This document shows, piece by piece, positions 7,883 through 55,559 of a stretch of DNA of 64,000 nucleotides. This DNA is from a virus (Duplodnaviria > Caudoviricetes), in the IMG/VR virus record IMGVR_UViG_3300025437_000009; one strand, given 5' to 3'. Position 1 is the first letter of the stretch. Every line of letters starts with the position of its first letter. Under the pieces are notes generated by a model. It made no database searches. It was given only the letters and a program-made list of their open reading frames with translations, and had not been told where the DNA came from. The position numbers were made by a program, and so were the translations under genes.

Positions 7883-8845
7883 TTATTTTGGTCTTCTTTG
7901 TGTGTAGTCATCCAATGACGAATAAAATTGTGGATCTTTTGCTGTTTGCGGCCAGGTGTTGGTTTTTTGTAAATTACGGTGAGCTGCGTATGAATAAACA
8001 TCCTTTGCAATATTGACATACTGTTGTAAAGTTAAATTGCTTTTTCCTTTGTTAATAATCCAAAGAACCCAAACAACATTTCCTGGTTTATATCCGCCGC
8101 CTGGGTTGATTTGATCAGGACTAGGGCTAGTCCACTCGCCGGCAGCTTTCAAAAACCCTTTTCCTATACTGGCACCAAACGGCAAACCACTGTAAGCACA
8201 ACGTTCCTGCTGTAAGTCGTGAAAAATATACCAGGCTTGCTCGATATCAAATTCTATTCCAGCTTTTTGACGTCCTAACATTCCTTGAATACTTTGTGCC
8301 CAATACTGATGCACGGTACTGTTTGGGTTAAACCCTTTACTTACAATTGATGTAATTTGCTGGTCCCATACCTGTGATGTTGGAATCCTAACAGGTTCCG
8401 TTGCTCCAGGTAACAAACTAGCTACATTTGAAGGGGGCACTTTAGTTGACGCCAACAAAACTTTTTTTAATGTTGAAATATTTCCTAAGACATGTTCGCA
8501 AAGACTTATAAAACTTGCCTGCGGCATATTCATTTTTACTGAATTTACACACCAACGAACAAACTGCACATTGTTGGCGGTATATCCAGCTGCAGGATTG
8601 ATTTGATCGGCACTGATCATGTCCCAGTTGCCGGCTCTCTCAAAACTAAATGGTTTACCTGTTAGAGCACACACTTGGCCTTGTCTTTGGAATATTGCCC
8701 AGGCTTCTTCTAACGACATTTGTGCTTTTTTGCGAAGGGTTGATCGCCAGAAATTTACAAACTGCACGTGTATAGGGTTGTTTGCATCGTACCCAGCAGT
8801 TCTGGCGGTATATGGATTGGCTTCGACAATTTCAAACGTTTTCAT
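7883..8845 (-). CDS. protein with two tandem His-Me/HNH-like nuclease domains
   Basis: Two repeats of CAxxGxPF...SxDQINPxxGYxxxNVxxVxWxxNxxK. N-terminus MKTFEIVEA. Confidence 0.6.
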   Translation of the reverse strand: MKTFEIVEANPYTARTAGYDANNPIHVQFVNFWRSTLRKKAQMSLEEAWAIFQRQGQVCALTGKPFSFERAGNWDMISADQINPAAGYTANNVQFVRWCVNSVKMNMPQASFISLCEHVLGNISTLKKVLLASTKVPPSNVASLLPGATEPVRIPTSQVWDQQITSIVSKGFNPNSTVHQYWAQSIQGMLGRQKAGIEFDIEQAWYIFHDLQQERCAYSGLPFGASIGKGFLKAAGEWTSPSPDQINPGGGYKPGNVVWVLWIINKGKSNLTLQQYVNIAKDVYSYAAHRNLQKTNTWPQTAKDPQFYSSLDDYTQRRPK

Positions 8846-8867
8846 ACTGGTTTCTTATAAATACCTA

Positions 8868-8988
8868 GTGCGGTAACAGTACAGCGTGATGCATCAAAGA
8901 ACCCGAGGATTTCCTGTACTTCCCCTCTGGGCAACAACGAATTGGCAGACGAGCTTTGTAGTGCATCGCCGCACACTTATTTTTTTTT
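8868..8988 (+). ncRNA. candidate pseudoknotted small RNA with its own late promoter
   Basis: TATAAATA at 8856-8863. Stems GTGCGG/CCGCAC, GATGCA/TGCATC, CAAAG/CTTTG, CCC-GAGG/CCTC-GGG, and a 7-bp pseudoknot AGTACAG/CTGTACT. A T-run follows. Confidence 0.55.
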
Positions 8989-9720
8989 ACGCCCTTGGCA
9001 ATGGGCACGTTGACTAAATCCTTTTGGGTGTGAACAATCAATACTGCGTTTGTATTTTTTAGACCATTTTTCATCTAAGACTGATTCATTTTTAGAACGA
9101 CCAGATTTCATATTAGCACACCAATGATACATCTTGGCACGTTCGCCTGAGGCACGTTTGGCTTTGGCACGTAGACTGGTCACACTACCTTTACAGCTGG
9201 CGCCTGCACGTTTGACACGCCCTGGACGACTTTTGCCTTTGACCTTGCCGTCGTGAAAGTTTTCTTTTAAGAATGTATCAGCTAGTCGTTTGCACAATTC
9301 TCGTAGTTTTGCGTTGTCTGTTTCTATGCTATCGTCGTGATCTTGTGTAGGATCTTTATATCCGCAATAGACGTGCTCTATGCCTGCATCAGCAATTATA
9401 TCTTCACAACTTTCGCCAGACCGGTCATTCATTGGACGATTACAAGGACTTAAGGTAGTAACAATTATACATTCTGGAGTAATATCACCGTAAGCATCAA
9501 TGGCTGCACGTTCAGCATGTACATATTTGTCATCAATTTTATAACTAGTACGGCAAACTTTTTGACCTTCGGGACCTAATACACAAGCACCAACCATGCC
9601 ATAATGGTCATTGTCTTTTTCTTGATTGTCAAGAACTAACTCGCATAATTCAGCAAGTATAGCATCTAATTCTTCTCGGGGATCACTAGACGGGGCTGTA
9701 AGGATTTCTTGGATAATCAC
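8977..9720 (-). CDS. zinc-dependent deaminase (RibD/cytidine deaminase fold) fused to basic Cys-containing modules
   Basis: Motifs HAERAA and TTLSPC...C. C-terminal basic modules are separated by ...ESVLDE. Confidence 0.75.
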   Translation of the reverse strand: MIIQEILTAPSSDPREELDAILAELCELVLDNQEKDNDHYGMVGACVLGPEGQKVCRTSYKIDDKYVHAERAAIDAYGDITPECIIVTTLSPCNRPMNDRSGESCEDIIADAGIEHVYCGYKDPTQDHDDSIETDNAKLRELCKRLADTFLKENFHDGKVKGKSRPGRVKRAGASCKGSVTSLRAKAKRASGERAKMYHWCANMKSGRSKNESVLDEKWSKKYKRSIDCSHPKGFSQRAHCQGRKKK

Positions 9721-9766
9721 TATTGTCGCCCTCGGCTTGTTCGGGATAAACTGGATATTCGTTCAT
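9686..9766 (-). CDS. putative 26-aa peptide MNEYPVYPEQAEGDNSDYPRNPYSPV
   Basis: ATG overlaps the upstream stop (ATGA coupling). The 3' part overlaps the deaminase start in another frame. Confidence 0.35.
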   Translation of the reverse strand: MNEYPVYPEQAEGDNSDYPRNPYSPV

Positions 9767-10125
9767 TCTGGATTTTCTTCGCTGTAGTTACGCATGATAA
9801 CACCAGCAGTAGCATTAGCATCATTTTCTTCGTCACTGCCAGTGACTCCAGAATCTGGACCTAATTTGTTTTCTTGATCTTGTTTATAGTGTACTAGTTC
9901 GTGTGCTAGTGTACGGAATACATCTTTTGGGTGACGACCTTTTGACACTAGATAAATTGTTTTTTCTTCTGGTTTGTAAGCACCAAATGTTAGGCCTTCT
10001 GCATCAGGAACCTTAGTAACTACATCAATACGTGGGTGCTCGTCAATACCCAAATGGTCACAGGCAAACTTAACAAAGTTTGGCAATTGACTGTGTATTG
10101 GATCAACTACTTCGAAGATTTTCAT
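9763..10125 (-). CDS. zinc metallopeptidase-like protein
   Basis: RTLAHELVH (HExxH). N-terminus MKIFEV. Confidence 0.65.
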   Translation of the reverse strand: MKIFEVVDPIHSQLPNFVKFACDHLGIDEHPRIDVVTKVPDAEGLTFGAYKPEEKTIYLVSKGRHPKDVFRTLAHELVHYKQDQENKLGPDSGVTGSDEENDANATAGVIMRNYSEENPE

Positions 10126-10526
10126 TTTTTCGTTTTAAGTTGTATAGCACCAACTCGACGTGTTGGACTTGTTTTGTTTACTGTGTCTACTTCATCTGAG
10201 CCGTCTGGTGTAAGTTGTGTGTGATTAGCTTCCCAACCAAATGCTTTAGCAGCTTGATCTAAAATCTTACGCTCGCCTTCACTGTAGGCCACAGCAACAA
10301 GACTTTGTCCATTTGGACCATCTTTTTTTGGCTCGTGTTCATATTTGCCATCTGGTGCACCAGCACCACCTAAGAAGTAAGCAGCAAAACGCCAGGGGTG
10401 ATATGGACTAGAGTTATCTAGCTTATGGTGACTACGCATACCCGGTGTAGCACTTTGATGGCTATCTGGAATACCGTCGTTGTCCTGATCCTTTATATCT
10501 TCGGTGATAATTTCGTTTATTTTCAT
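10122..10526 (-). CDS. hypothetical protein, probable internal head protein
   Basis: Likely start MKINEIITED at ATG 10526. Confidence 0.55.
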   Translation of the reverse strand: MKINEIITEDIKDQDNDGIPDSHQSATPGMRSHHKLDNSSPYHPWRFAAYFLGGAGAPDGKYEHEPKKDGPNGQSLVAVAYSEGERKILDQAAKAFGWEANHTQLTPDGSDEVDTVNKTSPTRRVGAIQLKTKK

Positions 10527-10957
10527 TTTGTAGTAGCCCTTAACATCCATGCATGTTTTTGGAACGCATCCATACGTTCTGCTAGGAAGTTTGAGAAGCC
10601 ATGCTGTCCTTCTGCTTCAGCTAGATCATAAACACGTTTAAGAATTTTAACCATGTTTTCTGCATCTGCTAGCAATTCATCAACCATTGCTATGCCAGGC
10701 ATAACTTCAGTTTCATCTTCAATACGTGTTAGTACACTAAAGCGACTATTGCTACCGGGAGCATAACCGCCTAAGCTACGAATCTTTTCTGCAAATTCAT
10801 CTACTGTACCGTAAACTTCTGAATAGATAGTTTCAAATAGACTATGTAGTTCTTGGAAGTTGATGCCTTCTACGTTCCAATGAAAGAAATGTGCTTTCAA
10901 ATAGAAAGTATATTGACTAGCAAATCCAATCTTAGCGGCTTTGATTAACTGTTCCAT
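10523..10957 (-). CDS. dps: Dps family ferritin-like DNA protection protein
   Basis: HFFHWNVEG, FQELHSLFE, DEFAEKIR ferroxidase signature; C-terminal KHAWML. Confidence 0.93.
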   Translation of the reverse strand: MEQLIKAAKIGFASQYTFYLKAHFFHWNVEGINFQELHSLFETIYSEVYGTVDEFAEKIRSLGGYAPGSNSRFSVLTRIEDETEVMPGIAMVDELLADAENMVKILKRVYDLAEAEGQHGFSNFLAERMDAFQKHAWMLRATTK

Positions 10958-10958
10958 G

Positions 10959-11444
10959 TTATTCCTTGTTTGGTACGCAGTTATTTACACGCACTCCACC
11001 TTTGACTTTGGTCTTAGGTGTGCCAATGTGTTTGCCTGACCAGCACTTAGGATCTAATCGTGTTTTAGTTGCTTTCGCTTCAGTTAATACTTGATTGTAC
11101 CATGTCATGGCATTTTCTAACATAACCATTAGATCCTGCACCGATTCGCAATGCCACTTGCGTAGAGCTTTGTTGATACGGCTGTTTGGATCACGTTTAG
11201 TTTTTGCACCAGCACGATGTTTCTTCATGCCCTTCATTCGAGCACAAAAACTCTTACGACGCTTAGAGGCTTTTGACCCCTTCTTTAACTTGCTAGGTTT
11301 TGTAGTAACGGCAGTCTGTAGTTTAGAGCCAGGATGACTACGGCGATAAGACGCAACACCCTTTTTATTTAGGCCGCCATTTTTGTTTTTGCCTTTACTG
11401 GTTTGCCAGGCTTCAGCTTCTACAACAAAATCTGAACTTTTCAT
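10959..11444 (-). CDS. basic modular protein, probable internal head protein
   Basis: Lys-rich module GGLNKKG...RRKSFCARM and terminal CW...NNCVP module, of a kind seen in T4-like phages. Confidence 0.6.
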   Translation of the reverse strand: MKSSDFVVEAEAWQTSKGKNKNGGLNKKGVASYRRSHPGSKLQTAVTTKPSKLKKGSKASKRRKSFCARMKGMKKHRAGAKTKRDPNSRINKALRKWHCESVQDLMVMLENAMTWYNQVLTEAKATKTRLDPKCWSGKHIGTPKTKVKGGVRVNNCVPNKE

Positions 11445-11445
11445 A

Positions 11446-13500
11446 TTACTTGATGCTTTCTTTTAATTCGTCAACTAAACTATTTAGTTTTTTGCTTTTT
11501 TCGTTCTGTAGCTTAGTCCAGTAGTCGGTGGATTCATCTACATGTTTAGGTTTCTTATGTGCCTTCTTCATAGCAATAGCAATAGCGGCCTGCTGTGCTG
11601 GGCTACCAGCTTCTTTCATAATAGGCATAAGTGTAATTTTATCCGCTTTGGTTTTGTCGCCCTGATTATATAACTTCTTCTTCCAGTTATCGTGGAATTG
11701 ACGAGCTTGTTCATAGTAGTCAAATTGTTTAACAGGTTTACCAGCTAGACAAACAGCATATGGTTCTACTTTTTTAAAGTCTTGATATCCCTCTGCTACA
11801 CCCTGTTTTAATTTGCGTTCATAATCAGCTATAATCTCATTGCGATATTGTGGACTTTGTGCAATAGCACGATTGATATGATCAGGATATACAGGAGTCT
11901 TGGCTTGTCGGTTTACTACTGCATGGTGACGTGGATCTGGATCATCTTCCCATTCGCCATCATCAAAATCATTTTCAAATTTCATATTACCACCAATTGG
12001 ACTTGCGCTATCGTTAGCCATAAAGTCATTACTGTCTTCATCAACACCTGTTAATGCTATCACAGGATCTGCACTTTCTTTAGCCCATTGATCGTGCTCG
12101 CTTGACCAGTCGTTTGTACCATCATACCAACTGTCTTCTTCAAGTCCAACCATTGTATACTTGTTAGCAGGATCTCTAACACCAATCTGCATGCCAGGAT
12201 ATTTGTTTTTGATAGCCTGTGCGTGACGCTGTGCCAACTCTTGTGACTCATGCGACTTAATAGGTACCCAATCTGCTCCTACACGTTTGCATACAGTATG
12301 ATACCCTGCCGCATTAGGTACTGTAAGTCCTCGAATAGCTAGGTCTTTCATGCCGCCTTCTTCTAATTCACCTTGATTGGGATCGGATACAGGTTTAACA
12401 TAAGCGCCTTTGTTGGTAAGATATTCGTGAATAAACTGTAACAAATAACTAGGATTACCAAATAGATTTAACACTAGAGTCTTTTTAGTTTCTGAATCAG
12501 GCATTGCAGATAGGATGTCCATGACACCTTTAATCTGTTTGCGTTTGATTTTGATTGGAATCAAACTGCCCGGAGCTTCAATATCTACTGTATCGTGATT
12601 CGCTACATACGCATTGACAAATTTTTGTAAATTATCATCTGCTACTTGTTTAACAAAAGGAGTTGGGTTAACAGCTTCTGCTACCTTTTGTCCACCCACT
12701 AGACTTAATAAACTAGCCGCTTTTTGTTGTCTTGCTGTACCTAGGTCTTTTACTTTACCTGCACCAGTAGTGGGCTTTGGTTGAACAGTGGGTTGATTAG
12801 CAGCCCAATTAGTAGCTGGTTGTGTTTGATACTGAGCCAATTGTTGTTTTGGACTTACTACTCGTCCTGGTGTTTGTGTCAATTGACTAGCCATCTGACC
12901 TAGTGCAGGACTTGCAGTAGGTTCTTGAGTTGTTTGAGCAGTAGGCTCTTGTGCCGTTTGTTGAGTCTGTTGAGGCTCGGCGGCAGTTGATGATGTTCTT
13001 GGAACAATAAATGTAGGAGCTGTTCTTGTTTGTGCAGGCTTAGTTGAAGCCTTAGGAGTTCCAGTAACTGGATTAAATAAGTCTTTGGGTTTTTGTGTTA
13101 CCTTAGGTTCTTCTCCACGCTCAATATCCTGTGCAGCACGTGCTTGCTCGGGCGGTGTAAGATCCATACCGGCAACTTTTTGTGTAAAGTCTTGGAAACG
13201 ACGTTCTTTGTCTTGTACAAACTTGTTAGTAGAATCGATCTGTTTATATAAATCTTTTTCTTGTTTTTGCAGTTGATCAATTTGTTGTTGCTGTTGTTGA
13301 TTTAACTGATCAGTTTTCCAACTGTGCGCCGCCAGGGCTTCTACATCATTAGCACCGGGATATTCTTTACGTGCAGCATCAATGGCCTTGCGAGTATCTG
13401 CATACTTAGTAGTTTTATAAAGATCTTTATCCTGAGATTTCTTTGCGCTAGCTTTTGCTTCTGCAAAGGTCAATGGATTAACTAAGTCGTACAAATTCAT
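11446..13500 (-). CDS. large modular low-complexity protein, probable internal head polyprotein
   Basis: Coiled coil, Q/T/P-rich linker, and modules separated by VAEA, LEEG, LEED, QGVAEG, KEAG, VDES. Confidence 0.65.
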   Translation of the reverse strand: MNLYDLVNPLTFAEAKASAKKSQDKDLYKTTKYADTRKAIDAARKEYPGANDVEALAAHSWKTDQLNQQQQQQIDQLQKQEKDLYKQIDSTNKFVQDKERRFQDFTQKVAGMDLTPPEQARAAQDIERGEEPKVTQKPKDLFNPVTGTPKASTKPAQTRTAPTFIVPRTSSTAAEPQQTQQTAQEPTAQTTQEPTASPALGQMASQLTQTPGRVVSPKQQLAQYQTQPATNWAANQPTVQPKPTTGAGKVKDLGTARQQKAASLLSLVGGQKVAEAVNPTPFVKQVADDNLQKFVNAYVANHDTVDIEAPGSLIPIKIKRKQIKGVMDILSAMPDSETKKTLVLNLFGNPSYLLQFIHEYLTNKGAYVKPVSDPNQGELEEGGMKDLAIRGLTVPNAAGYHTVCKRVGADWVPIKSHESQELAQRHAQAIKNKYPGMQIGVRDPANKYTMVGLEEDSWYDGTNDWSSEHDQWAKESADPVIALTGVDEDSNDFMANDSASPIGGNMKFENDFDDGEWEDDPDPRHHAVVNRQAKTPVYPDHINRAIAQSPQYRNEIIADYERKLKQGVAEGYQDFKKVEPYAVCLAGKPVKQFDYYEQARQFHDNWKKKLYNQGDKTKADKITLMPIMKEAGSPAQQAAIAIAMKKAHKKPKHVDESTDYWTKLQNEKSKKLNSLVDELKESIK

Positions 13501-14258
13501 TATAGTGTTCCTGCTGATTTCTGTTTAATTTGTTGTAGGTTTTGAATTAACTTGTTAGCATCGGCTGGATTGGCATTTACTAGAGCATCTTCAACACCCT
13601 TGCCAAGAGCACCAACAATCTTCTTACCAGTCTGATCCATACCAGCTCCAGTAGTTGGGTTGACATTAGGATTCTGTGCGTTAGCTACAGCAGTCTTGGC
13701 AGCTTGACTTGCACCAACTCCAGTTTTAATTCCAACTAAATTTTGTAACTTTTGGAATGCTTGACCAGTCTGTGCTGTTTGCTGAGCCAGTTGTCTTTGT
13801 TTAATAGGGTCTTGACCCTGAGGAGGATTATTTGCACCAGCTTCTTTTACTGTTTCTTGTTCTTTTACAAATTGTTCCCATGCGGCCATTAGTTCTTCTT
13901 CTAAGTCACCGTTTATTGGACTGCGACTATCATCAGGACCTGCACCCTGTACATAGTTCATCTCTAGGCCACTTTCTTCCATACCGCCTACACCCATACC
14001 TGGCTTAGGTGGGTTAGGATCAGTACCTTTCCAATAGCCACCAAACTTTGCACCCGATGGATGCTTTTCAGCATCAGCCATAGAACCTTCATCCATGTCG
14101 CCCATGATGTTGTCCCAAAATTCTGCGTGCTCATGTCCCCATTTTTCACAGAACTGATCACGTGTCATGCGCTCGGCATCACGCCACATGGCTTCTTTGG
14201 TCATGCCTTCATCTAAGCGTTTGAATGTCTGCAGAATGTTGTAAAAATTATTATCCAT
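13500..14258 (-). CDS. modular protein, probable internal head protein
   Basis: Linkers LDEG, MDEG, MEES, LEEE, VKEA. Confidence 0.6.
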   Translation of the reverse strand: MDNNFYNILQTFKRLDEGMTKEAMWRDAERMTRDQFCEKWGHEHAEFWDNIMGDMDEGSMADAEKHPSGAKFGGYWKGTDPNPPKPGMGVGGMEESGLEMNYVQGAGPDDSRSPINGDLEEELMAAWEQFVKEQETVKEAGANNPPQGQDPIKQRQLAQQTAQTGQAFQKLQNLVGIKTGVGASQAAKTAVANAQNPNVNPTTGAGMDQTGKKIVGALGKGVEDALVNANPADANKLIQNLQQIKQKSAGTL

Positions 14259-14713
14259 TACTTAGGAGCCTTAATTTTAACAGGACCGCCTTTGGTCATT
14301 TGATTAGTATAGGTCTTTTGACGCTTGATCATTTCGGTAGGCATATTACCCTGCTGAGAAAAACTTACGGCAACACTAGGGCTACCAGTAGCACCAGCAG
14401 TGGCATTTTCATTCAGACTTTCAGTGAACATACGTTCTGCATCTCTAGCATCAAATCCTGGAACTTCTGGTTGATGTCCCATTTCGTGCTGACTTTTTAA
14501 ATAATCAGTAACAGCATCAATCATACCTTTGGCAACAGCAATTTTTTCCTGGCACCATTCTGGGATATCTTCGTTATTTTTTAAACTTTTGGCTAGTTCA
14601 ACTGCATCGCGAACCATAGTATGTAGGTTATTTTTGACCATACCCACTTCGTCACTATACTCGTACTTTTCTGCTGATTCTGCGTATTTGTTAATAAAGT
14701 CTGTAGTTTTCAT
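14258..14713 (-). CDS. hypothetical protein, probable internal head protein
   Basis: N-terminus MKTTDFINKYAES; late TAAATA box at 14735-14740. Confidence 0.6.
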   Translation of the reverse strand: MKTTDFINKYAESAEKYEYSDEVGMVKNNLHTMVRDAVELAKSLKNNEDIPEWCQEKIAVAKGMIDAVTDYLKSQHEMGHQPEVPGFDARDAERMFTESLNENATAGATGSPSVAVSFSQQGNMPTEMIKRQKTYTNQMTKGGPVKIKAPK

Positions 14714-14737
14714 AATATAATTCCGTTGTTAGTGTAT

Positions 14738-15010
14738 TTATTCTGTTGTTGTAAACTCGTTTGCGGAAACAACATCATCTACTGTTATGTTCTTAGTCTG
14801 TATGCTTCCGCTTGAATTTATCTGCTCTACTCGTAACACATGTGATCCGGGCAGTAAATTTACTATAATATTTTCACGCACAAATACTTCGTGAGCTGAC
14901 CAAATAAAATCTCGTTCAGTTAATAAATCACGGTCTACATATATGCGATATGTGGGATTAGATTCTCCTCGACGTGCATATACATCTACGGTGATTTTAT
15001 GTTCGGTCAT
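14738..15010 (-). CDS. hypothetical beta-rich protein
   Basis: ORF track; coupled to the upstream gene; resembles 16045-16500. Confidence 0.55.
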   Translation of the reverse strand: MTEHKITVDVYARRGESNPTYRIYVDRDLLTERDFIWSAHEVFVRENIIVNLLPGSHVLRVEQINSSGSIQTKNITVDDVVSANEFTTTE

Positions 15011-16014
15011 GGGTTAAATGCTAACTTAGCACGTTCTGCTTTAAGTTGCTCAATTCGTTGTTTGAGCTTTTCTTTATATTCTGCAGGTAATTGTTCTGTA
15101 GTAATACGTTGTTTAATTTCGTCAATTAAATTTCCTAAATGCTCGATCTCTCGCATAGTTAAACGATCAACAGCACTGGGCTCTGTTTCTGCTAAATCAA
15201 ATGCTTTAAGGCTTTTTTTAATCTGTCCGGGACGCACATCTTTAGTCAAACTCATTGAATAGCGTGGATCATTGGCCTGTGCTTTACTAGCAACAACACC
15301 TACACCCGCGGCTTCACCAACTGGTTCGGGTTTTCCTACCTTTTGTAGCTGGGCTTTATTTTTTAACTGTGGTGGTTCTACAGATTTTGCTGGCAACAGT
15401 TTATTATCCATAATCTGTTGAGCTTCGTGAGTATAACGTCCGTACAAATCTTTGATTATTTGTTGACGTTGAGCATTATCGGCTTTTGCGTATAAATTTC
15501 TAATGCTAGTAGCACCAGTAATTTTTTGTCCTAGTATTTCAAATTCTTGTACTTTGACAGTTTGAACGTATGCGTGTTTATCTGCACTTTCAACTGAGGT
15601 TTGATCATTGGGTAAGGGTTGTAATTTTTTTGGAGTACCGTCTGATTTTGTTCCGCCATTGAATAAGCCTGGTTTTTCATCTACGTCTTTTTGGCTTACA
15701 GGGAAGATCATAACAGTATGGCTAAGATCATTGATTCCCAGTGCTTTGGCAGCAACATCGGGGTTATAGTTGTTTGATAACTGTAGTATGCGATCAGATG
15801 GAATTCCCAACAAGTTCATGAAATAAACTCGTTCGGAAAGTGTAAAAGGACTGTCTGGGAGTTCTACTTTACCGCTGGTGCCAATATAGACATTTTCACG
15901 TCCGTATGTACCAACTAGGTTGTTGTAGACTGCAGCATGTCCGCGATGGAAGGGCTGGAATCTACCACAAAAAATAACAACAACACGCCGTTCGGCTAAT
16001 TCATTAATAAACAT
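15007..16014 (-). CDS. HxGH nucleotidyltransferase (cytidylyl/NMN adenylyltransferase-like)
   Basis: GRFQPFHRGH motif. N-terminus MFINELAE; TAAATA at 16036-16041. Confidence 0.7.
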   Translation of the reverse strand: MFINELAERRVVVIFCGRFQPFHRGHAAVYNNLVGTYGRENVYIGTSGKVELPDSPFTLSERVYFMNLLGIPSDRILQLSNNYNPDVAAKALGINDLSHTVMIFPVSQKDVDEKPGLFNGGTKSDGTPKKLQPLPNDQTSVESADKHAYVQTVKVQEFEILGQKITGATSIRNLYAKADNAQRQQIIKDLYGRYTHEAQQIMDNKLLPAKSVEPPQLKNKAQLQKVGKPEPVGEAAGVGVVASKAQANDPRYSMSLTKDVRPGQIKKSLKAFDLAETEPSAVDRLTMREIEHLGNLIDEIKQRITTEQLPAEYKEKLKQRIEQLKAERAKLAFNP

Positions 16015-16044
16015 AGTAACAGTTCTCTATTACTATATTTATCT

Positions 16045-17601: not shown

Positions 17602-18336
17602 TTATTTATCGGCCACTACAACCAGCTCGTGAATATTTGAAACCAAACCTGGAGAAATTAATGCAATAAAAGTAGTGACACTAGGATCATTTGTGTAAAA
17701 ATATCCATTCCACATGTAGCTACTAGATTTGGTTAGCATGGTCAAAAATCCATTGGGTATTTTAACCATTTCTGGCCCAAGAGAATTAAGATAGTTTAGT
17801 ATGCTGTCCTTAACGTCTTTCGAATACTTACCATCACGGAGCACAACTTTATGGCTATAGCCAAGATTCTTTTTGCGTATAATAGCACCAGAATCTAATA
17901 AATTCTTTGAAGTATCATCTTCTGGGCCAGTGATATTTTCAATATAGACGTGGTCTTTGGGACTAAAATATGTATCAATTATAGTTGTTAATTCTTCTTC
18001 GGAATTAGCGTATAGTTGTAGTCGAGGCTCTTCAATTCGCATTTTAATATTAGGTAATCGCTGATGCCTTAAGGCTTTCATACGCTCAAGGAATTCAGGA
18101 TCAGCCTTGTCTATATTTTTTGCTAGTCTTTCTCCCCACCATCCTTTGATATTTACGGATAAGACTCTGCGATGTTCTAATTCATCAACCACTGACCTTT
18201 TACTGTCTACAGCACGACCAGCTGGACAAAATACGATTAATCTATATAGATACCGCCCATAAAACTTTTTAGAAGTATGATCCCGTACAATCTTAGGATT
18301 GTACAGAATCCATTTTGATATATCCATTAGCATCAA
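17602..18336 (-). CDS. hypothetical protein
   Basis: 244-aa ORF overlapping the clpA end; exact start uncertain. Confidence 0.65.
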   Translation of the reverse strand: MMLMDISKWILYNPKIVRDHTSKKFYGRYLYRLIVFCPAGRAVDSKRSVVDELEHRRVLSVNIKGWWGERLAKNIDKADPEFLERMKALRHQRLPNIKMRIEEPRLQLYANSEEELTTIIDTYFSPKDHVYIENITGPEDDTSKNLLDSGAIIRKKNLGYSHKVVLRDGKYSKDVKDSILNYLNSLGPEMVKIPNGFLTMLTKSSSYMWNGYFYTNDPSVTTFIALISPGLVSNIHELVVVADK

Positions 18337-20581
18337 TCATAGGAGTTGCTGGGATAAATTGACCCAGAGCAGTAAATTCAAAAGCATCATCCCGCCAATC
18401 GACTTCAATTACGGTGTGTGCAGGAATAGTGTCGAACAAAATCTTTTTACTTAGTGGTACTTTAATCAAATCGTTAATCTTACGACCTAAAGGACGAGCA
18501 CCCATTTTACTATCGTAGCCAACTTCAGCTAAATGATCTGTTGCTGCTTCAGTTAACCGAATCTTCAGTGATTTTTCACTTAGTAGATCATTCATTTCGT
18601 TAATAAACTTAGCAACAATCTTCTTAATACTGATAGTATCTAACTTATTAAACTTACAAACACCATCTAAACGATTGCGGAACTCTGGTTTAAAGAAGTC
18701 TTTAACTGCTTTGTCATCTTCACCAGACTTTTGTAATTCACGACCAAAGCCAATGTTATTACGTTCGTTATCTGCAGCACCAAGGTTACTGGTAAGAATA
18801 ATAATGGCGTTACGTGCATCTGCTTTTTTACCGTTACTACTTGTAATAGTACCTTCGTCCATTAACTGTAGTAAGATATTCATTACATCCGGGTGTGCTT
18901 TTTCGACTTCGTCAAATAGAACAACACAGTTAGGATTCTTTTCAATGTCGCTGATTAATAATCCGCCACCAAGATTTGAGTCATCATATCCAACATAACC
19001 TGGAGGAGCACCAATTAATTTAGCGGCTGCATGCTTTTCTTGATATTCACTCATATCGTAACGTAGCATCTTCATGCCCATACCTTCGGCCAACAATTTA
19101 GCAAGTTCTGTTTTACCAGTACCAGTTGGTCCCAGGAATAAGAAATTACCAATTGGTTTGTTCATTGATTTTAGTCCAGCACGTGCTACATAAATTTTAT
19201 CCAGGACTGTATCTACTACAGAATCTTGTCCGTATAGTTTAGTTTTGATTGTTTCTTCCAGCCCCACAAGACTTTTAGTTGATTCAGATCCAATTTGTTC
19301 TGCGGGAATCTTAGTAAACTTACTGATAATGTCAACGATATGACTCTTACGCACAGTCCATGCTATGGCATTAATTTTTAATTTAGCTGCGGCTGTGTCA
19401 ATTAAGTCAATGGCTTTGTCTGGTAACTTCTTGTCTGGTTGATAACGAACACTCAAATCAACAGCGGCATCAATAGCTTCATCACTGATTGACCCTTCGT
19501 GGAATGCTTCAAAATATTCTTTAAGGCCATGTAAGATTTCTTTAGCTACTGCGGGAGTTGGTTCCTCGATGGTCATACGTACAAAGCGACGCATAAGGGC
19601 ACGATCTTTTTCAAATGATTGTGTGTATTCTTCCCAAGTGGTTGATGCAATAACTTTAATTTGTCCTTTGGCCAGTGCAGGTTTAATCATATTAGCAAAG
19701 TCTACTGAACTGTTACTAGCTGAACCAGCTCCACGCATTTGATGTGCTTCATCAATAAACAAGATGCACTTGCCTTTGGCCTGTAGTGCACCAATGACAT
19801 CTTTAAACTTTTCTTCAAACTCACCACGATATTTAGATCCAGCAAGCAATGACCCAATATCTAAATTCCATACTGTGTAGTCGCGTAAGTATTCGGGAAC
19901 ACTACCCTCAACAATATTGCGGGCAAGTCCTTCGGCAATAGCTGTTTTACCCACACCGGCATCACCAACCATTAAGATATTACACTTGTTACGTTTGGCC
20001 AAGACCTGTGCTATTTCATCTAGTTCAAATTCACGTCCGACTACTGGATCAATTTTACCGTCTTTGGCCTGCACATTTAAATTTTCACAGTATTCACGTA
20101 GAATATCATCGGCACGTGCATTGGCCGGCAAACGTTTGGCTTTACTTTCTACATAATTTTGATTATAGAATTCAACCAATTGACTGCGTTCTAATCCATA
20201 TTTGATAAAGAAATAACTTGCGTGGCTATTTGCTTCGCTGGCTATACTTAAAAAGATATCAATGACTTGTACATGATTACGTCCACTAAACAGGACCTGT
20301 GTAAATGCACGATTAAAAATTCTTTCAAGACTGTGAGTTTTCTTTGGAATATGATCTGCGTCAGGGGAAACTAGATATGTTTGTTTATTTAAATAATCCT
20401 CGAGGTCTTTAACTAGAGCATCAGCATCTATACCATAGGCCACAAGTAAATCATTAAATGGTTTAAATGTTACAAGTCCGTGTGTTAAGTGTTCTATGGT
20501 AACATATTCGTGGTTATAATTTTTTGCTAGATCAGTTGCACTAGCAATAATAACTTCAATTTCTGGATTGTGTTGGATCAT
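18293..20581 (-). CDS. clpA: ClpA-like AAA+ unfoldase
   Basis: Clp N-domain; two Walker A motifs (GDAGVGKT, GPTGTGKT); FIDEAH; LFDEVEKAHPDV; GARPL. Confidence 0.93.
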   Translation of the reverse strand: MIQHNPEIEVIIASATDLAKNYNHEYVTIEHLTHGLVTFKPFNDLLVAYGIDADALVKDLEDYLNKQTYLVSPDADHIPKKTHSLERIFNRAFTQVLFSGRNHVQVIDIFLSIASEANSHASYFFIKYGLERSQLVEFYNQNYVESKAKRLPANARADDILREYCENLNVQAKDGKIDPVVGREFELDEIAQVLAKRNKCNILMVGDAGVGKTAIAEGLARNIVEGSVPEYLRDYTVWNLDIGSLLAGSKYRGEFEEKFKDVIGALQAKGKCILFIDEAHQMRGAGSASNSSVDFANMIKPALAKGQIKVIASTTWEEYTQSFEKDRALMRRFVRMTIEEPTPAVAKEILHGLKEYFEAFHEGSISDEAIDAAVDLSVRYQPDKKLPDKAIDLIDTAAAKLKINAIAWTVRKSHIVDIISKFTKIPAEQIGSESTKSLVGLEETIKTKLYGQDSVVDTVLDKIYVARAGLKSMNKPIGNFLFLGPTGTGKTELAKLLAEGMGMKMLRYDMSEYQEKHAAAKLIGAPPGYVGYDDSNLGGGLLISDIEKNPNCVVLFDEVEKAHPDVMNILLQLMDEGTITSSNGKKADARNAIIILTSNLGAADNERNNIGFGRELQKSGEDDKAVKDFFKPEFRNRLDGVCKFNKLDTISIKKIVAKFINEMNDLLSEKSLKIRLTEAATDHLAEVGYDSKMGARPLGRKINDLIKVPLSKKILFDTIPAHTVIEVDWRDDAFEFTALGQFIPATPMIDANGYIKMDSVQS

Positions 20582-20589
20582 AAAAATAT

Positions 20590-21450
20590 TTATTGTGGAT
20601 TAGTTAATGAACGAACTATTTCTAATTGTTCTGTAGTAAGGTTTTGTGGTACAGTCAATGCTACTTCAACGTATAAATCTCCTCGACGATCTGAATTTAA
20701 TTCGTATAAACCTTGTTCTGGTAATCTAAATTTTATACCAGGTTGAGTTCCGGCAGGTAAAGTTAATATAAATGTTTTGCTATCTAATCCCACTATGGTA
20801 ATATCACCACCTGCTGTTGCTAGTAAACAGTTTACACTAGCTCGGTGGTATAAGTCAATGCCATTGGTAATAAATCCGTCGGCATTATGTACTTTAAAAT
20901 GAACATAAAGGTCACCTCGAGGTAAAGTATTGAATAAATTATCTCCAAGTCCGGAATATTTAATTTGTGTACCATTGGTCACACCCCTTGGTATTTTAAC
21001 TTCTACTGTTTCACGATGACCGTTAGTAGTCTGTACACTGATAGTTTTTGATTGTTCTTCTAAGGTTGTAACTAGGGGTAATGCAATTTCAATACGCAGG
21101 TCTTTGTTGCGTCTTTGTTGTTGTCTAGCTTGTGCAAAAGGATCTCCGCCAAACCCAAAACCAAAATTTCTAAATATTTCGTCAATGTTGGGATGATTCA
21201 CGCCACCACTGTGCCAACGGAATATCACATTCTCATCACCGACACCACCACCAAAGCCATTACGTTGCATGTCATAGTGTTGACGTTTATTTGGGTCACT
21301 GAGTGTGTCGTATGCTTGTTGTATTTCTTGAAACTTGGCCTTGTCTCCACCCTTGTCAGGATGATGCTGACTAGCTAGTTTTCGATAAGCTCGTTTGATT
21401 TCGTCGGGAGAAGATTTGTCCCCAACCCCTAAAATTTCGTAATAATTCAT
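20590..21450 (-). CDS. dnaJ: DnaJ/CbpA-like co-chaperone
   Basis: J-domain with HPD, G/F-rich region and C-terminal domain; no zinc finger. Confidence 0.92.
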   Translation of the reverse strand: MNYYEILGVGDKSSPDEIKRAYRKLASQHHPDKGGDKAKFQEIQQAYDTLSDPNKRQHYDMQRNGFGGGVGDENVIFRWHSGGVNHPNIDEIFRNFGFGFGGDPFAQARQQQRRNKDLRIEIALPLVTTLEEQSKTISVQTTNGHRETVEVKIPRGVTNGTQIKYSGLGDNLFNTLPRGDLYVHFKVHNADGFITNGIDLYHRASVNCLLATAGGDITIVGLDSKTFILTLPAGTQPGIKFRLPEQGLYELNSDRRGDLYVEVALTVPQNLTTEQLEIVRSLTNPQ

Positions 21451-47404: not shown

Positions 47405-47950
47405 TTATAAACGACGATTAACGGCGTCCCAGTCAATGATACGCCAAATGTTGTCTAAATATTTTTCTTTGTTTGCATGATAGTCTAGTGACCAAGCGTG
47501 TTCCCACCAGTCTACTAGTAAGGCTATATCAGTGCGTTTTGCATGATTACGAATTGTTTTAATCTGTCCGGATTTACTGAGATAAATCCAACCAGATCCT
47601 TGAATCTTCATTGCTTCTGTTTTGAAGTTCTTTTTAAAGTCTACAAAGTTTGTGTGATGTCGATTAATAATATCAAGTATAGTGCCACGAGGACGGCTTA
47701 CCCCCGGGTTCTTGAATTGACTAAAGTAGATGCCGTGCAAGTATGCACCTGCTTCGTTGAATCCACGATCACCTTCATGTTTGTTGAAACGATCAACATA
47801 CCCTTTATACAACTTGCCATAGTGATAGTCGATAGTTGCCGAGCTCATCACTGGACTTAAAGCAGTTTTAGAATAGGGCAGTTTAATTTGCTCTAGTGTG
47901 CCTTTTTCTTTTGCTTCTAGGAGGTCTAGTGTTTGTCTTATATCAGTCAT
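47405..47950 (-). CDS. sod: Fe/Mn superoxide dismutase
   Basis: LPY...L.P, YHYGK, LHG, GSGW, DWWEHAW; metal ligands appear intact. Confidence 0.9.
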   Translation of the reverse strand: MTDIRQTLDLLEAKEKGTLEQIKLPYSKTALSPVMSSATIDYHYGKLYKGYVDRFNKHEGDRGFNEAGAYLHGIYFSQFKNPGVSRPRGTILDIINRHHTNFVDFKKNFKTEAMKIQGSGWIYLSKSGQIKTIRNHAKRTDIALLVDWWEHAWSLDYHANKEKYLDNIWRIIDWDAVNRRL

Positions 47951-47954
47951 ACTA

Positions 47955-48173
47955 TTATTTATTGCGGTATACTACACGACCGCGGCTTAGATCATACGTC
48001 GACATTTCAACATCAACTCGATCACCTAATAATATGCGTATATTATTCTGTCTTAACCTACCGCCGATCGTGGCAGTAATTTTGTGTCCATTTTCTAGTA
48101 TTACACGAAACATAGCGTTTGGTAGAACTTCGTCTACTACTCCACTCATTTCAATTATATCGTCTTTAGCCAT
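47955..48173 (-). CDS. infA: translation initiation factor IF-1
   Basis: [29 protein letters not shown]...[18 protein letters not shown]. Confidence 0.95.
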
Positions 48174-54609: not shown

Positions 54610-54715
54610 TTAGCTATTCAAAACTTTTGCCACACTATTCATTACTGATGCAATACGACCAATGTCACGCAAGTTTTCTACTGTGTAGCCTTCTTGCTTG
54701 AGTGTGTCAATGAGC
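54610..54715 (-). pseudogene. ahpD: orphaned duplicate of the ahpD 3' end
   Basis: Translates DTLKQEGYTVENLRDIGRIASVMNSVAKVLNS*, 26/32 identical to the intact AhpD C-terminus; no start codon. Confidence 0.9.
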
Positions 54716-55559
54716 CTTCCGCCACACCTTGCTCTACGCTTTCTTTCACTCCGAGTTTATCAATGATATACTTGCAACTTGATGCAGAAGTATTGATGAA
54801 ACCCATGAACATTGGCCTATCATCTTTCATCATTGGCATTATATTTTTAACAAAAGATCGTGCAGTTTCTTGGGTATAATTTGGAGGAAGTCCAACATAA
54901 TTGGCTAAAGCAGTCGATGCTTTGTATGATTTATTTGAATACTCCTCTAACATATTCATAAAACCATCATCTCTCGGTTGAGTATTTTTGAATACTCCTT
55001 TTGCCATTTCAAAAGTTCCAAAGCATTCCGCAGTAATTTTTGCCATTTCTCTGTAATCAGAATCGGCGACCGCTTGCTTAGCCGCACCTAATCCGATTGC
55101 GCCAACAGCCGCCGCACCCAAGCCTTTCAAAAATCCTCTACGGTCAATTTCATCTAACTGTGCTTCCGCCACACCTTGCTGTCCTTGGACAGGGCTGTCT
55201 CTAAGTGCATCTCGATAAAACTCTTTGAAATCTTGTGCCAATTCTCTTGCTGACCACGCCCAAGTTTGACTGTCCCAATCGTCTGTCATCTCAGCTTCAA
55301 GTTTAGTACTCGGGTCTCGACCACGACTAAACCCTATACGAACAGTATGTTCAATTTGTTTATTAACCAACTTTGCAAATAGTTTGCCATTGGGATTTGG
55401 ATTAATTGTTACTTTATATCCGTGTTTTTCAGCAAACTGTATCGTTGGCTGTAAGAACTGGATTTTAGGATCAACAACACCAGCTTGGGCTGGAATATCT
55501 TCCGCCACCGGAGTCTGTGCGGTTTCTATTAAGTTAATGTAATCTCTAAGTGTTTTCAT
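54678..55559 (-). CDS. modular probable internal head protein with an internal Tat signal peptide
   Basis: Start MKTLRDYINLIE after TAAATA (55567-55572); QGVAEAQLDEIDRRGFLKGLGAAAVGAIGLGAAKQAVA; ends QGVAEG plus a tail borrowed from the ahpD remnant. Confidence 0.8.
   Translation of the reverse strand: MKTLRDYINLIETAQTPVAEDIPAQAGVVDPKIQFLQPTIQFAEKHGYKVTINPNPNGKLFAKLVNKQIEHTVRIGFSRGRDPSTKLEAEMTDDWDSQTWAWSARELAQDFKEFYRDALRDSPVQGQQGVAEAQLDEIDRRGFLKGLGAAAVGAIGLGAAKQAVADSDYREMAKITAECFGTFEMAKGVFKNTQPRDDGFMNMLEEYSNKSYKASTALANYVGLPPNYTQETARSFVKNIMPMMKDDRPMFMGFINTSASSCKYIIDKLGVKESVEQGVAEGSLTHSSKKATQ
54716..55180. repeat. 18-bp perfect direct repeat CTTCCGCCACACCTTGCT
   Basis: Copies at 54716-54733 and 55163-55180; 10-bp core again at 55499-55508. 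Confidence 0.9.

Follow-up and report, generated by a model that had tools for sequence, protein, structure and literature searches.

Why do neighbouring phage genes with unrelated products begin with nearly the same short peptide? The question is raised by positions 7883-16014 of the IMG/VR record IMGVR_UViG_3300025437_000009, a 64-kb stretch of tailed-phage DNA with ~40% G+C (hereafter, the window), where 11 tightly packed consecutive genes lie on the minus strand, often with overlapping stop and start codons. A preliminary description of the region, made from the sequence alone, had proposed that these N-termini are capsid-targeting leaders like those of bacteriophage T4, and that Glu-containing linkers separate the modules of the encoded proteins. 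Based on a comparison with related metagenomic phages and with T4, we consider it probable that the cluster encodes capsid-targeted, protease-processed cargo proteins and polyproteins.

The T4 capsid targeting sequence (CTS) is MKTYQEFIAE (PMC8442874). Residues 4 and 7 are involved in targeting and residues 8 and 10 in processing, while Asp at position 10 still permits targeting; the removed propeptides comprise 7 residues in Alt and 65 residues in gp23 (PMC9026906). The T4 CTS, the CTS-like leaders on internal proteins of T-even relatives, and the long propeptides of phiKZ-like ejection proteins are already established. Our literature search found no paper on the leader, modules or polyproteins described here in Rak2/Atu_ph07-like or metagenomic jumbo phages, and the literature pairing a capsid targeting sequence with jumbo phages concerned phiKZ-like phages only.

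Within the window, the motif M...[DE][FILVM][FILVMA] starts 8 of the 11 cluster genes versus 2 of the 90 other open reading frames (ORFs), and both outside matches are false positives, corresponding to a DnaJ J-domain and an IF1-like protein. The motif background is 1.2% of the positions inside proteins and ~2% at T4 N-termini, and the clustering of the leaders is significant in hypergeometric (p = 3e-8) and binomial (p = 2e-11) tests. All the N-termini quoted in the preliminary description were recovered on the minus strand in their places, with a single correction of a start codon (that of the 134-aa gene). The leader, of approximately 10 residues, is common to unrelated protein bodies of at least six families, and the same holds for the relatives that we compared, i.e., syntenic clusters in IMG/VR contigs (L001-L005, here L001, L002 and L004), the 288.8-kb contig G001 and the complete 372-kb genome G004. 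The families found behind it include a nucleotidyltransferase (NTase), a deaminase, a zincin, an HNH-like protein, DUF6321, GNAT acetyltransferases, a GH19 lysozyme-like enzyme and an amidoligase. Paralogues encode the leader with different synonymous codons and have unrelated upstream DNA, which indicates selection on the peptide and speaks against a promoter, a ribosome-binding element and a recombination motif alike. A DNA-level recombination motif (PeSL-like) was specifically discarded, as neither the leader DNA nor the upstream DNA is conserved.

The leader is more regular in the relatives. In L002, ten neighbouring genes start with MRAQEF[I/L/V]xE or a close variant, and the 43 unique leaders of the window and four relatives gave the consensus M-[K/R]-[I/A]-x-[E/D]-[I/F/L]-[I/L/V]-x-E. 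Glu, which was outside the rule used to select these leaders, is present at position 9 in 19 of them, a seven-fold excess over background, and at position 8 in another 8 (27/43 in total). The resulting lineage consensus, M-[K/R]-x-x-E-Φ-Φ-x-E (where Φ is a hydrophobic residue), has the E-Φ-Φ-x-E core of the T4 CTS. Genes beginning with the stricter form MRAQEFxxE are present in at least 120 IMG/VR contigs, often several in tandem, compared with an expectation of ~3 according to our own estimate from the information content of the pattern and the size of the collection. With the loose rule, 15 leader ORFs were counted in G001 after removal of obvious false matches, and ~20 convincing ones among 33 in G004. 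A second, Alt-like leader flavour (M-F/N-x-x-D-L-F/V) is found on large polyproteins, as in MFALDLFN, MFVFDLFEK and MNLYDLVNP.

As a control, the grammar was applied as a regular expression to 273 T4 ORFs, where only ipII, ipIII, gp21, gp22, gp24, alt, gp2 and gp61.1 matched; the loose motif also matches lysozyme and five further non-packaged T4 proteins. The N-termini of gp21 substrates read from the T4 genome are MAKINELLRE in gp24, MLKEQLIAE in gp22, ..QLLIE in gp21 and MELITE in Alt, and the MKINEIITE start of the 134-aa window protein is nearly identical to the gp24 propeptide MAKINELLRE↓S (↓, known or candidate cleavage position).

The same signature, Φ-x-E, recurs inside the proteins. 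Counting every instance of four small modules in all the fetched loci, Φ-x-E directly precedes the module in 17/17 KWS, 10/10 DUF6321 and 9/9 DUF5872 contexts, and the rule holds whether the module follows a leader (MRAQEFVTE↓KWS) or another module (..VLDE↓KWS, ..YVEE↓KWS). The Glu linkers of the preliminary description are real: [GKQ]VAE[AGS] occurs 4 times in the window, always in the 684-aa protein or in the gene at 54.7 kb, and the points at which relatives switch from one module to another lie precisely at VAE↓, LDE↓ and MKE↓. In a set of 5.8 billion proteins, the 684-aa protein has 135 relatives, most of which share residues 571-630 only; alignment coverage jumps exactly after GVAE↓G and drops after IMKE↓A. 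The residue preceding this module is Glu in 103 of 103 homologues, with V, M, F, L, I or A at P3 in 83 of them, while the remaining upstream sequence is unrelated. The module ends in P[IVL]M[DK]E↓ and is followed by unrelated sequence. Its AlphaFold2 model (pLDDT 84.5) corresponds to a small β-β-α-α-β unit with disordered ends, for which the fold search gave no significant PDB match. Internal junctions also include fossil leaders, such as ..MLMIAE↓SKIFEIMYE↓S.. in L004 and ..MFTE↓SLNE↓NATAG.. in the 151-aa protein of the window.

A Peptidase_S77 protease of the gp21 type is present in G001 and in 3/3 leader-bearing records of at least 90% completeness, one of which is G004. The head genes of G001 and G004 follow the T4 order 20-67-68-21-22-23. 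Between the portal and protease genes, in the slot of T4 genes 67 and 68, both relatives carry a leader-bearing gene of 77 or 78 aa (MIISELFDP.., MILRELFYIDP..), followed by those of an acidic protein, the protease, a scaffold-like protein and the capsid protein. Alignment with T4 gp23 places the maturation site of the G001 capsid protein at ..KMLAE↓NATAGST.., with two ALLE↓G sites upstream. The small leader proteins consist of the leader, a Gly/Ser/Thr-rich stretch and a charged tail, and they resemble the maturation site and N-arm of the capsid protein of their own phage. The 61-aa protein of G001 (126299-126484) resembles residues 37-58 of the G001 major capsid protein (2/500 shuffles), and residues 100-115 of the 151-aa window protein are similar to the maturation site inferred for the same capsid protein. 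In T4, gp61.1 resembles residues 56-88 of gp23 (0/500 shuffles); this protein (NC_000866, 18966-19130), which starts with MKTFKEFIKE, is annotated as hypothetical.

The T4 late promoter is TATAAATA, with the core ATAAATA. This core shows a strand bias of 16:3 in the window and 57:14 in G001, where it also precedes portal, baseplate and tail-fibre genes. Two copies lie on the minus strand of the cluster, at 16036..16042 and 14735..14741, each 21 nt before a gene (the start codon of the NTase gene and the 151-aa gene, respectively), and both are kept at that distance in L001, L004 and G001. The early-type sequence TGnTATAAT was not found on the cluster strand between 7 and 21 kb, and a generic scan of 7-17 kb for sigma-70 promoters and terminators performed no better than chance. 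The leader motif is not equally common in non-late genes: when each gene is classed by the closest same-strand motif upstream of it, a crude rule, the leader genes of the window, G001 and G004 are late in 31 cases and early in 3, versus 550 and 286 for the other genes (p = 0.0013). This pattern is consistent with expression of the cluster genes late, with the head genes. ATAAATA is also found only 5 nt before the ATG of the superoxide dismutase (SOD) gene (47951-47962), the ClpA-like gene (20582-20593) and several G001 genes, suggesting late mRNAs that are leaderless or have a very short 5′ untranslated region.

According to the explanation that we propose, 7883-16014 would constitute one or two late transcription units for proteins addressed to the prohead core by the short N-terminal leader. 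After shell assembly, a gp21-type serine protease would cut after the Glu of Φ-x-E, both removing the leader and separating the beads of the polyproteins. The enzymes, i.e., the NTase, the deaminase, the small zincin, the probably inactive tandem HNH-like protein and the SOD from elsewhere in the window, would be kept in the head with the DNA, where the many small and very basic Cys modules (DUF6321, DUF5872, KWS and CW) would take the role of the T4 basic internal proteins. The retained products would most likely be ejected into the host with the DNA. Core binding, cleavage, retention in the head, ejection and a role in anti-defence or takeover are all steps that we infer.

Several observations weigh against this explanation. 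The window has no head module, and the S77 protease is known from its relatives only. The proposal of T4-like N-termini stands for the lineage grammar, which matches the T4 CTS, but fits the window leaders only in part: of the eight, two have the exact T4 spacing Φ-Φ-x-E, two have the Glu one residue earlier, two have ΦAE at residues 12-14, and two, those of the deaminase and the zincin, have no Glu and thus no leader cut site. Two genes inside the cluster, the Dps-like gene and the 90-aa gene, are leaderless. Cultured phages gave zero matches by megablast of the region or by tblastn of the 684-aa protein and the 61-aa and 121-aa leader proteins, and Phosso, whose DNA polymerase is the nearest among cultured phages, has no such cluster around its polymerase gene and a single loose leader match in 469 kb, which indicates that the leader system is lineage-specific rather than group-wide. 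The cyanophage homologue PSSM2_123, described below, lacks an N-terminal leader. The rule behind the promoter classes is a crude one, and Φ-x-E could, in principle, be part of the fold of each module.

Three other explanations of the shared N-termini were considered. The leader and Φ-x-E might be read by non-capsid machinery, such as the cluster zincin (as in self-processing polyvalent proteins, Iyer et al. 2017), the ClpA-like unfoldase and DnaJ encoded upstream, or a tag modifier of the radical-SAM maturase kind. The small HExxH peptidase of the cluster is indeed conserved and in some cases fused to cargo modules; the ClpA-like and DnaJ genes (18293-21450) lie in the same late region, and a radical-SAM-like gene adjoins the G001 cluster. 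Nevertheless, the leader is also found on a small gene of the head module, the grammar of leaders and junctions is the documented specificity of gp21 (cleavage after Glu, hydrophobic P3), the region after the leader in the small proteins copies the capsid-protein maturation site, and no CxxxCxxC protein was found in the window, L002, L004 or the complete G004, all of which have many leaders. We regard such machinery as unlikely, and its radical-SAM version is ruled out by the absence of that motif from these four sequences. G001 itself encodes 13 radical-SAM-type CxxxCxxC proteins, several of which form a single block; their positions include 186-197 kb and 238-240 kb.

It might also be that entry into the prohead and cleavage are real and that most products, especially the polyproteins, act as core or scaffold only, being chopped and expelled at maturation instead of injected. 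The T4 core proteins gp22, gp67, gp68 and gp21, which carry the same N-terminal grammar, are degraded (PMC5694885), the polyproteins hold many candidate sites, and a leader gene occupies the 67/68 slot. However, it is hard to see why folded enzymes with intact catalytic motifs (HxGH, HAE..PC..C and HExxH) or strongly basic modules of a DNA-binding-like type (pI 10.6) should serve as a scaffold to be thrown away, and T4 Alt and the internal proteins, with a leader of this kind, stay in the head and are injected; expulsion seems to us rather improbable as the general one. A shared start with no addressing role, due to favoured codons after the AUG, a common first helix or common descent, could draw on the frequency of MK-rich starts in AT-rich phages and on the loose matches to T4 lysozyme and the five other non-packaged T4 proteins. 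We judge it very improbable in view of the unrelated bodies, the synonymous codon variation, the unselected seven-fold excess of Glu at position 9, the tight clustering (p = 3e-8) and the same Φ-x-E at internal junctions.

The capsid-targeted, processed cargo that we favour is closest to the T4 CTS system. Both have a short N-terminal leader placed on unrelated bodies encoded by late genes, and the lineage consensus, though only part of the window leaders, has the E-Φ-Φ-x-E that ends in the cut-site Glu of T4; the relatives of the window have the S77 protease and the gene order portal, small core protein, protease, scaffold and capsid; and the cargo includes a class of enzymes (cf. Alt) and one of basic proteins (cf. 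the T4 internal proteins). The differences are that the acidic position here comes one residue earlier in the leader, that the leader is more varied in the window, that there are ~15-20 leader genes per genome versus ~5 in T4, that the cargo consists mostly of recognisable enzymes and small Cys-rich basic modules, with multi-module polyproteins containing internal cut sites, and that the jumbo phage concerned is far from T4, with a DNA polymerase less than 60% identical to that of any cultured phage, and is known from sequence alone.

The phiKZ-like phages (phiKZ, 201phi2-1 and SPN3US) are likewise giant phages with many head-loaded proteins cut after Glu, often at several sites per protein. 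Their ejection or inner-body proteins are processed by a gp21-related protease at S/A-x-E, and several sites are common (PMC9026906, PMC5694885). However, their propeptides mostly have at least 100 residues, with no shared decapeptide and a small residue (S/A) at P3, whereas the leaders described here have 8-17 residues and a hydrophobic P3, which sets them apart from the phiKZ type; the lineage is also another one, and neither a virion RNA polymerase nor nucleus genes were seen here. Polyvalent proteins (Iyer et al. 2017, PMC5512222) carry 2-15 conflict-related domains on a single polypeptide that also contains a processing peptidase. As in our cluster, unrelated conflict-type domains (peptidase, deaminase-like, nuclease-like and GNAT) are strung together, and they are proposed to accompany the DNA and to be separated by cleavage once delivered. 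The cluster differs from this class in that its enzymes are mostly separate single-domain genes sharing a leader, including the zincin, a separate 120-aa gene in the window. In addition, its polyproteins are mainly made of tiny uncharacterised modules, and the junction grammar points to a head protease rather than to an embedded peptidase.

A broader and much more tentative reading, which we consider possible but doubtful, is that the leader and Φ-x-E↓ grammar makes the whole injected set of the lineage (~15-20 genes per genome) readable, including the deaminase, NTase, SOD, GNAT, GH19 lysozyme-like enzyme and inactive HNH-like protein. Under this reading, polyproteins would arise from fusions of leader genes, with fossil leaders serving as cut sites; cleavage would unmask cryptic signals, such as the internal twin-arginine translocation (Tat)-type leader of the gene at 54.7 kb, so that some cargo is re-exported to the periplasm; and small leader peptides that mimic the major capsid protein, including T4 gp61.1, would represent a conserved and so far unrecognised head component. 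If the capsid-loading explanation as such is correct, the proteins delivered with the DNA by widespread uncultured giant phages could be listed from their sequences, and the list would provide candidate enzymes for takeover or counter-defence in the first minute of infection (deaminase, NTase, SOD and pseudo-nuclease). The T4 capsid-addressing code would then be far older, and its use far broader, than one would suppose from the few T-even internal proteins. The cluster would also hint at how head-packaged polyproteins evolve and provide naturally occurring tag variants with which foreign proteins could be loaded into phage heads.

The best reading of the window itself is a fragment of an uncultured freshwater jumbo myovirus of ~300-370 kb, in the Rak2/Atu_ph07/Phosso-like group and with a T4-type head module. 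The closest match to its family-B DNA polymerase comes from Sinorhizobium phage Phosso, with 52% identity at best; Atu_ph07 and the Rak2-like Serratia and Erwinia phages are next. The exact 684-aa cluster protein is present on at least 20 metagenomic contigs of up to ~290 kb. A tblastn search with the NTase gave distant matches only, and the homologue in Microcystis phage Mel-JY01 has no such leader. Just upstream of the cluster, at 18293-21450 on the minus strand, are the genes of the ClpA-like AAA+ unfoldase (762 aa) and of a full DnaJ with its J domain and C-terminal domain, each kept in all the related loci.

In the order of transcription, the cluster starts with the 335-aa cytidylyltransferase-like NTase (15007..16014, minus strand, as for all the genes that follow), with a Pfam CTP_transf_like match from residue 14. 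Its leader, MFINELAE↓R, directly precedes the Rossmann strand with the GRFQPFHRGH motif and is kept in the orthologues. The leaderless 90-aa protein (14738..15010) gave no match in the Pfam search and has orthologues in L001, L002, L003 and L004. In the 151-aa protein (14258..14713), the leader MKTTDFINKYAE↓S is followed by an inserted module, the internal leader remnant MFTE↓SLNE↓, and NATAGATGS... with a basic tail; its C-terminal third corresponds to the entire 61-aa leader protein of G001 and L004. The 252-aa protein (13500..14258), the ninth cluster product with a leader, has a longer one of 17 residues, MDNNFYNILQTFKRLDE↓G, kept in four relatives that diverge past it; in the L001 counterpart, a different module comes directly after LDE↓.

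The 684-aa polyprotein (11446..13500) has the Alt-like leader MNLYDLVNPLTFAE↓A and no Pfam or PHROG domain. Its candidate junctions are E275 (KVAE↓A), E381 and E455 (LEE↓), E570 (GVAE↓G), E630 (IMKE↓A) and E656 (HVDE↓S). The 161-aa basic protein (10959..11444; pI 10.6) consists of the leader MKSSDFVVE↓AEA, a DUF6321 module identified by Pfam and a CW module, both of which are also found fused elsewhere in relatives. It is one of several strongly basic products, which are made up of Lys/Cys-rich mini-modules. The leaderless Dps/ferritin-like protein of 144 aa (10523..10957; Pfam Ferritin, E = 1.5e-23) is kept in all the related clusters. Its stop codon is overlapped (ATGA) by the start of the 134-aa gene (10122..10526), whose product begins with the leader MKINEIITE↓D; the corrected start of this gene is the inner Met of ORF 10122-10550, and outside gene callers give the same length.

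The preliminary description had named a deaminase, a metallopeptidase, an NTase and a nuclease-like protein as packaged enzymes. The deaminase and the NTase were matched by family and the metallopeptidase more weakly so, but the "nuclease" has Gln in place of the catalytic His, and, as mentioned above, two of the leaders have no Glu site. The 120-aa zincin-like metallopeptidase (9763..10125), with the HELVH motif and the leader MKIFEVVDP, gave weak Pfam and PHROG metalloprotease matches. In L004, the zincin is fused behind a DUF6321 module, with the internal leader remnant IAE↓SKIFEIMYE, and it is also fused to modules in G001. The 247-aa cytidine/dCMP-type deaminase (8977..9720) has a GTG start, the leader MIIQEILTA and a Pfam dCMP_cyt_deam_1 match at residues 29-120. 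Its C-terminal part contains a basic Cys module (aa 151-210) and, after VLDE↓, a KWS module; both modules recur in other proteins of L002 and G001.

The last gene of the cluster (7883..8845) encodes a 320-aa tandem His-Me/EndoVII-like (HNH-like) protein with the leader MKTFEIVE↓A, two stretches of which match PHROG families of endonuclease, endonuclease VII and Srd-like proteins. Both copies read DQIN, with Gln where HNH enzymes have the first catalytic His (D-H), and the protein is therefore probably inactive. It was not found in the related clusters and thus looks like a recent addition. This protein also matches PHROG families labelled as Srd anti-sigma factor and sigma-70 decoy.

The preliminary description had extended the pattern to two further genes of the window, the SOD gene and the gene at 54.7 kb, and both bear this out. 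The Fe/Mn SOD (47405..47950, minus strand), whose ATG lies 5 nt after the late promoter-like motif, carries a 17-residue N-terminal extension, MTDIRQTLDLLE↓AKEKG, ending in LLE↓A. Its Pfam Sod_Fe_N match runs from residue 22, at profile position 5, and the orthologues have similar extensions ending in Φ(Φ/x)E. The gene at 54.7 kb (54678..55559, minus strand) encodes a 293-aa modular protein that starts at an inner Met with the leader MKTLRDYINLIE↓T, followed by a VAE-bounded module and an internal Tat-signal-like segment. The N-terminal module is 85% identical to a module inside an L004 polyprotein, which is flanked by QGVAE on both sides in L004 and by TPVAE↓ and QGVAE↓ in the window. At residues ~129-165, directly after QGVAE↓AQLDE↓, a textbook Tat-type signal, DRRGFLKGLGAAAVGAIGLGAAKQAVA, is found in the middle of the protein, with a weak TAT_signal match at residues 137-154. 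This GVAE-LxE-DRRGFLKG arrangement recurs in L065 and L081. Were the protein cut at Φ-x-E, this segment would come to lie at a new N-terminus as an export signal.

Four of the basic Cys mini-modules (A, CW, DUF5872 and DUF6321) are also encountered in T4-like cyanophages, where the gp15-gp16 interval encodes a conserved protein composed of them, with Glu-rich linkers in between (P-SSM2 PSSM2_123 in L024; Syn30 in L025). This cyanophage protein is a candidate internal head protein.

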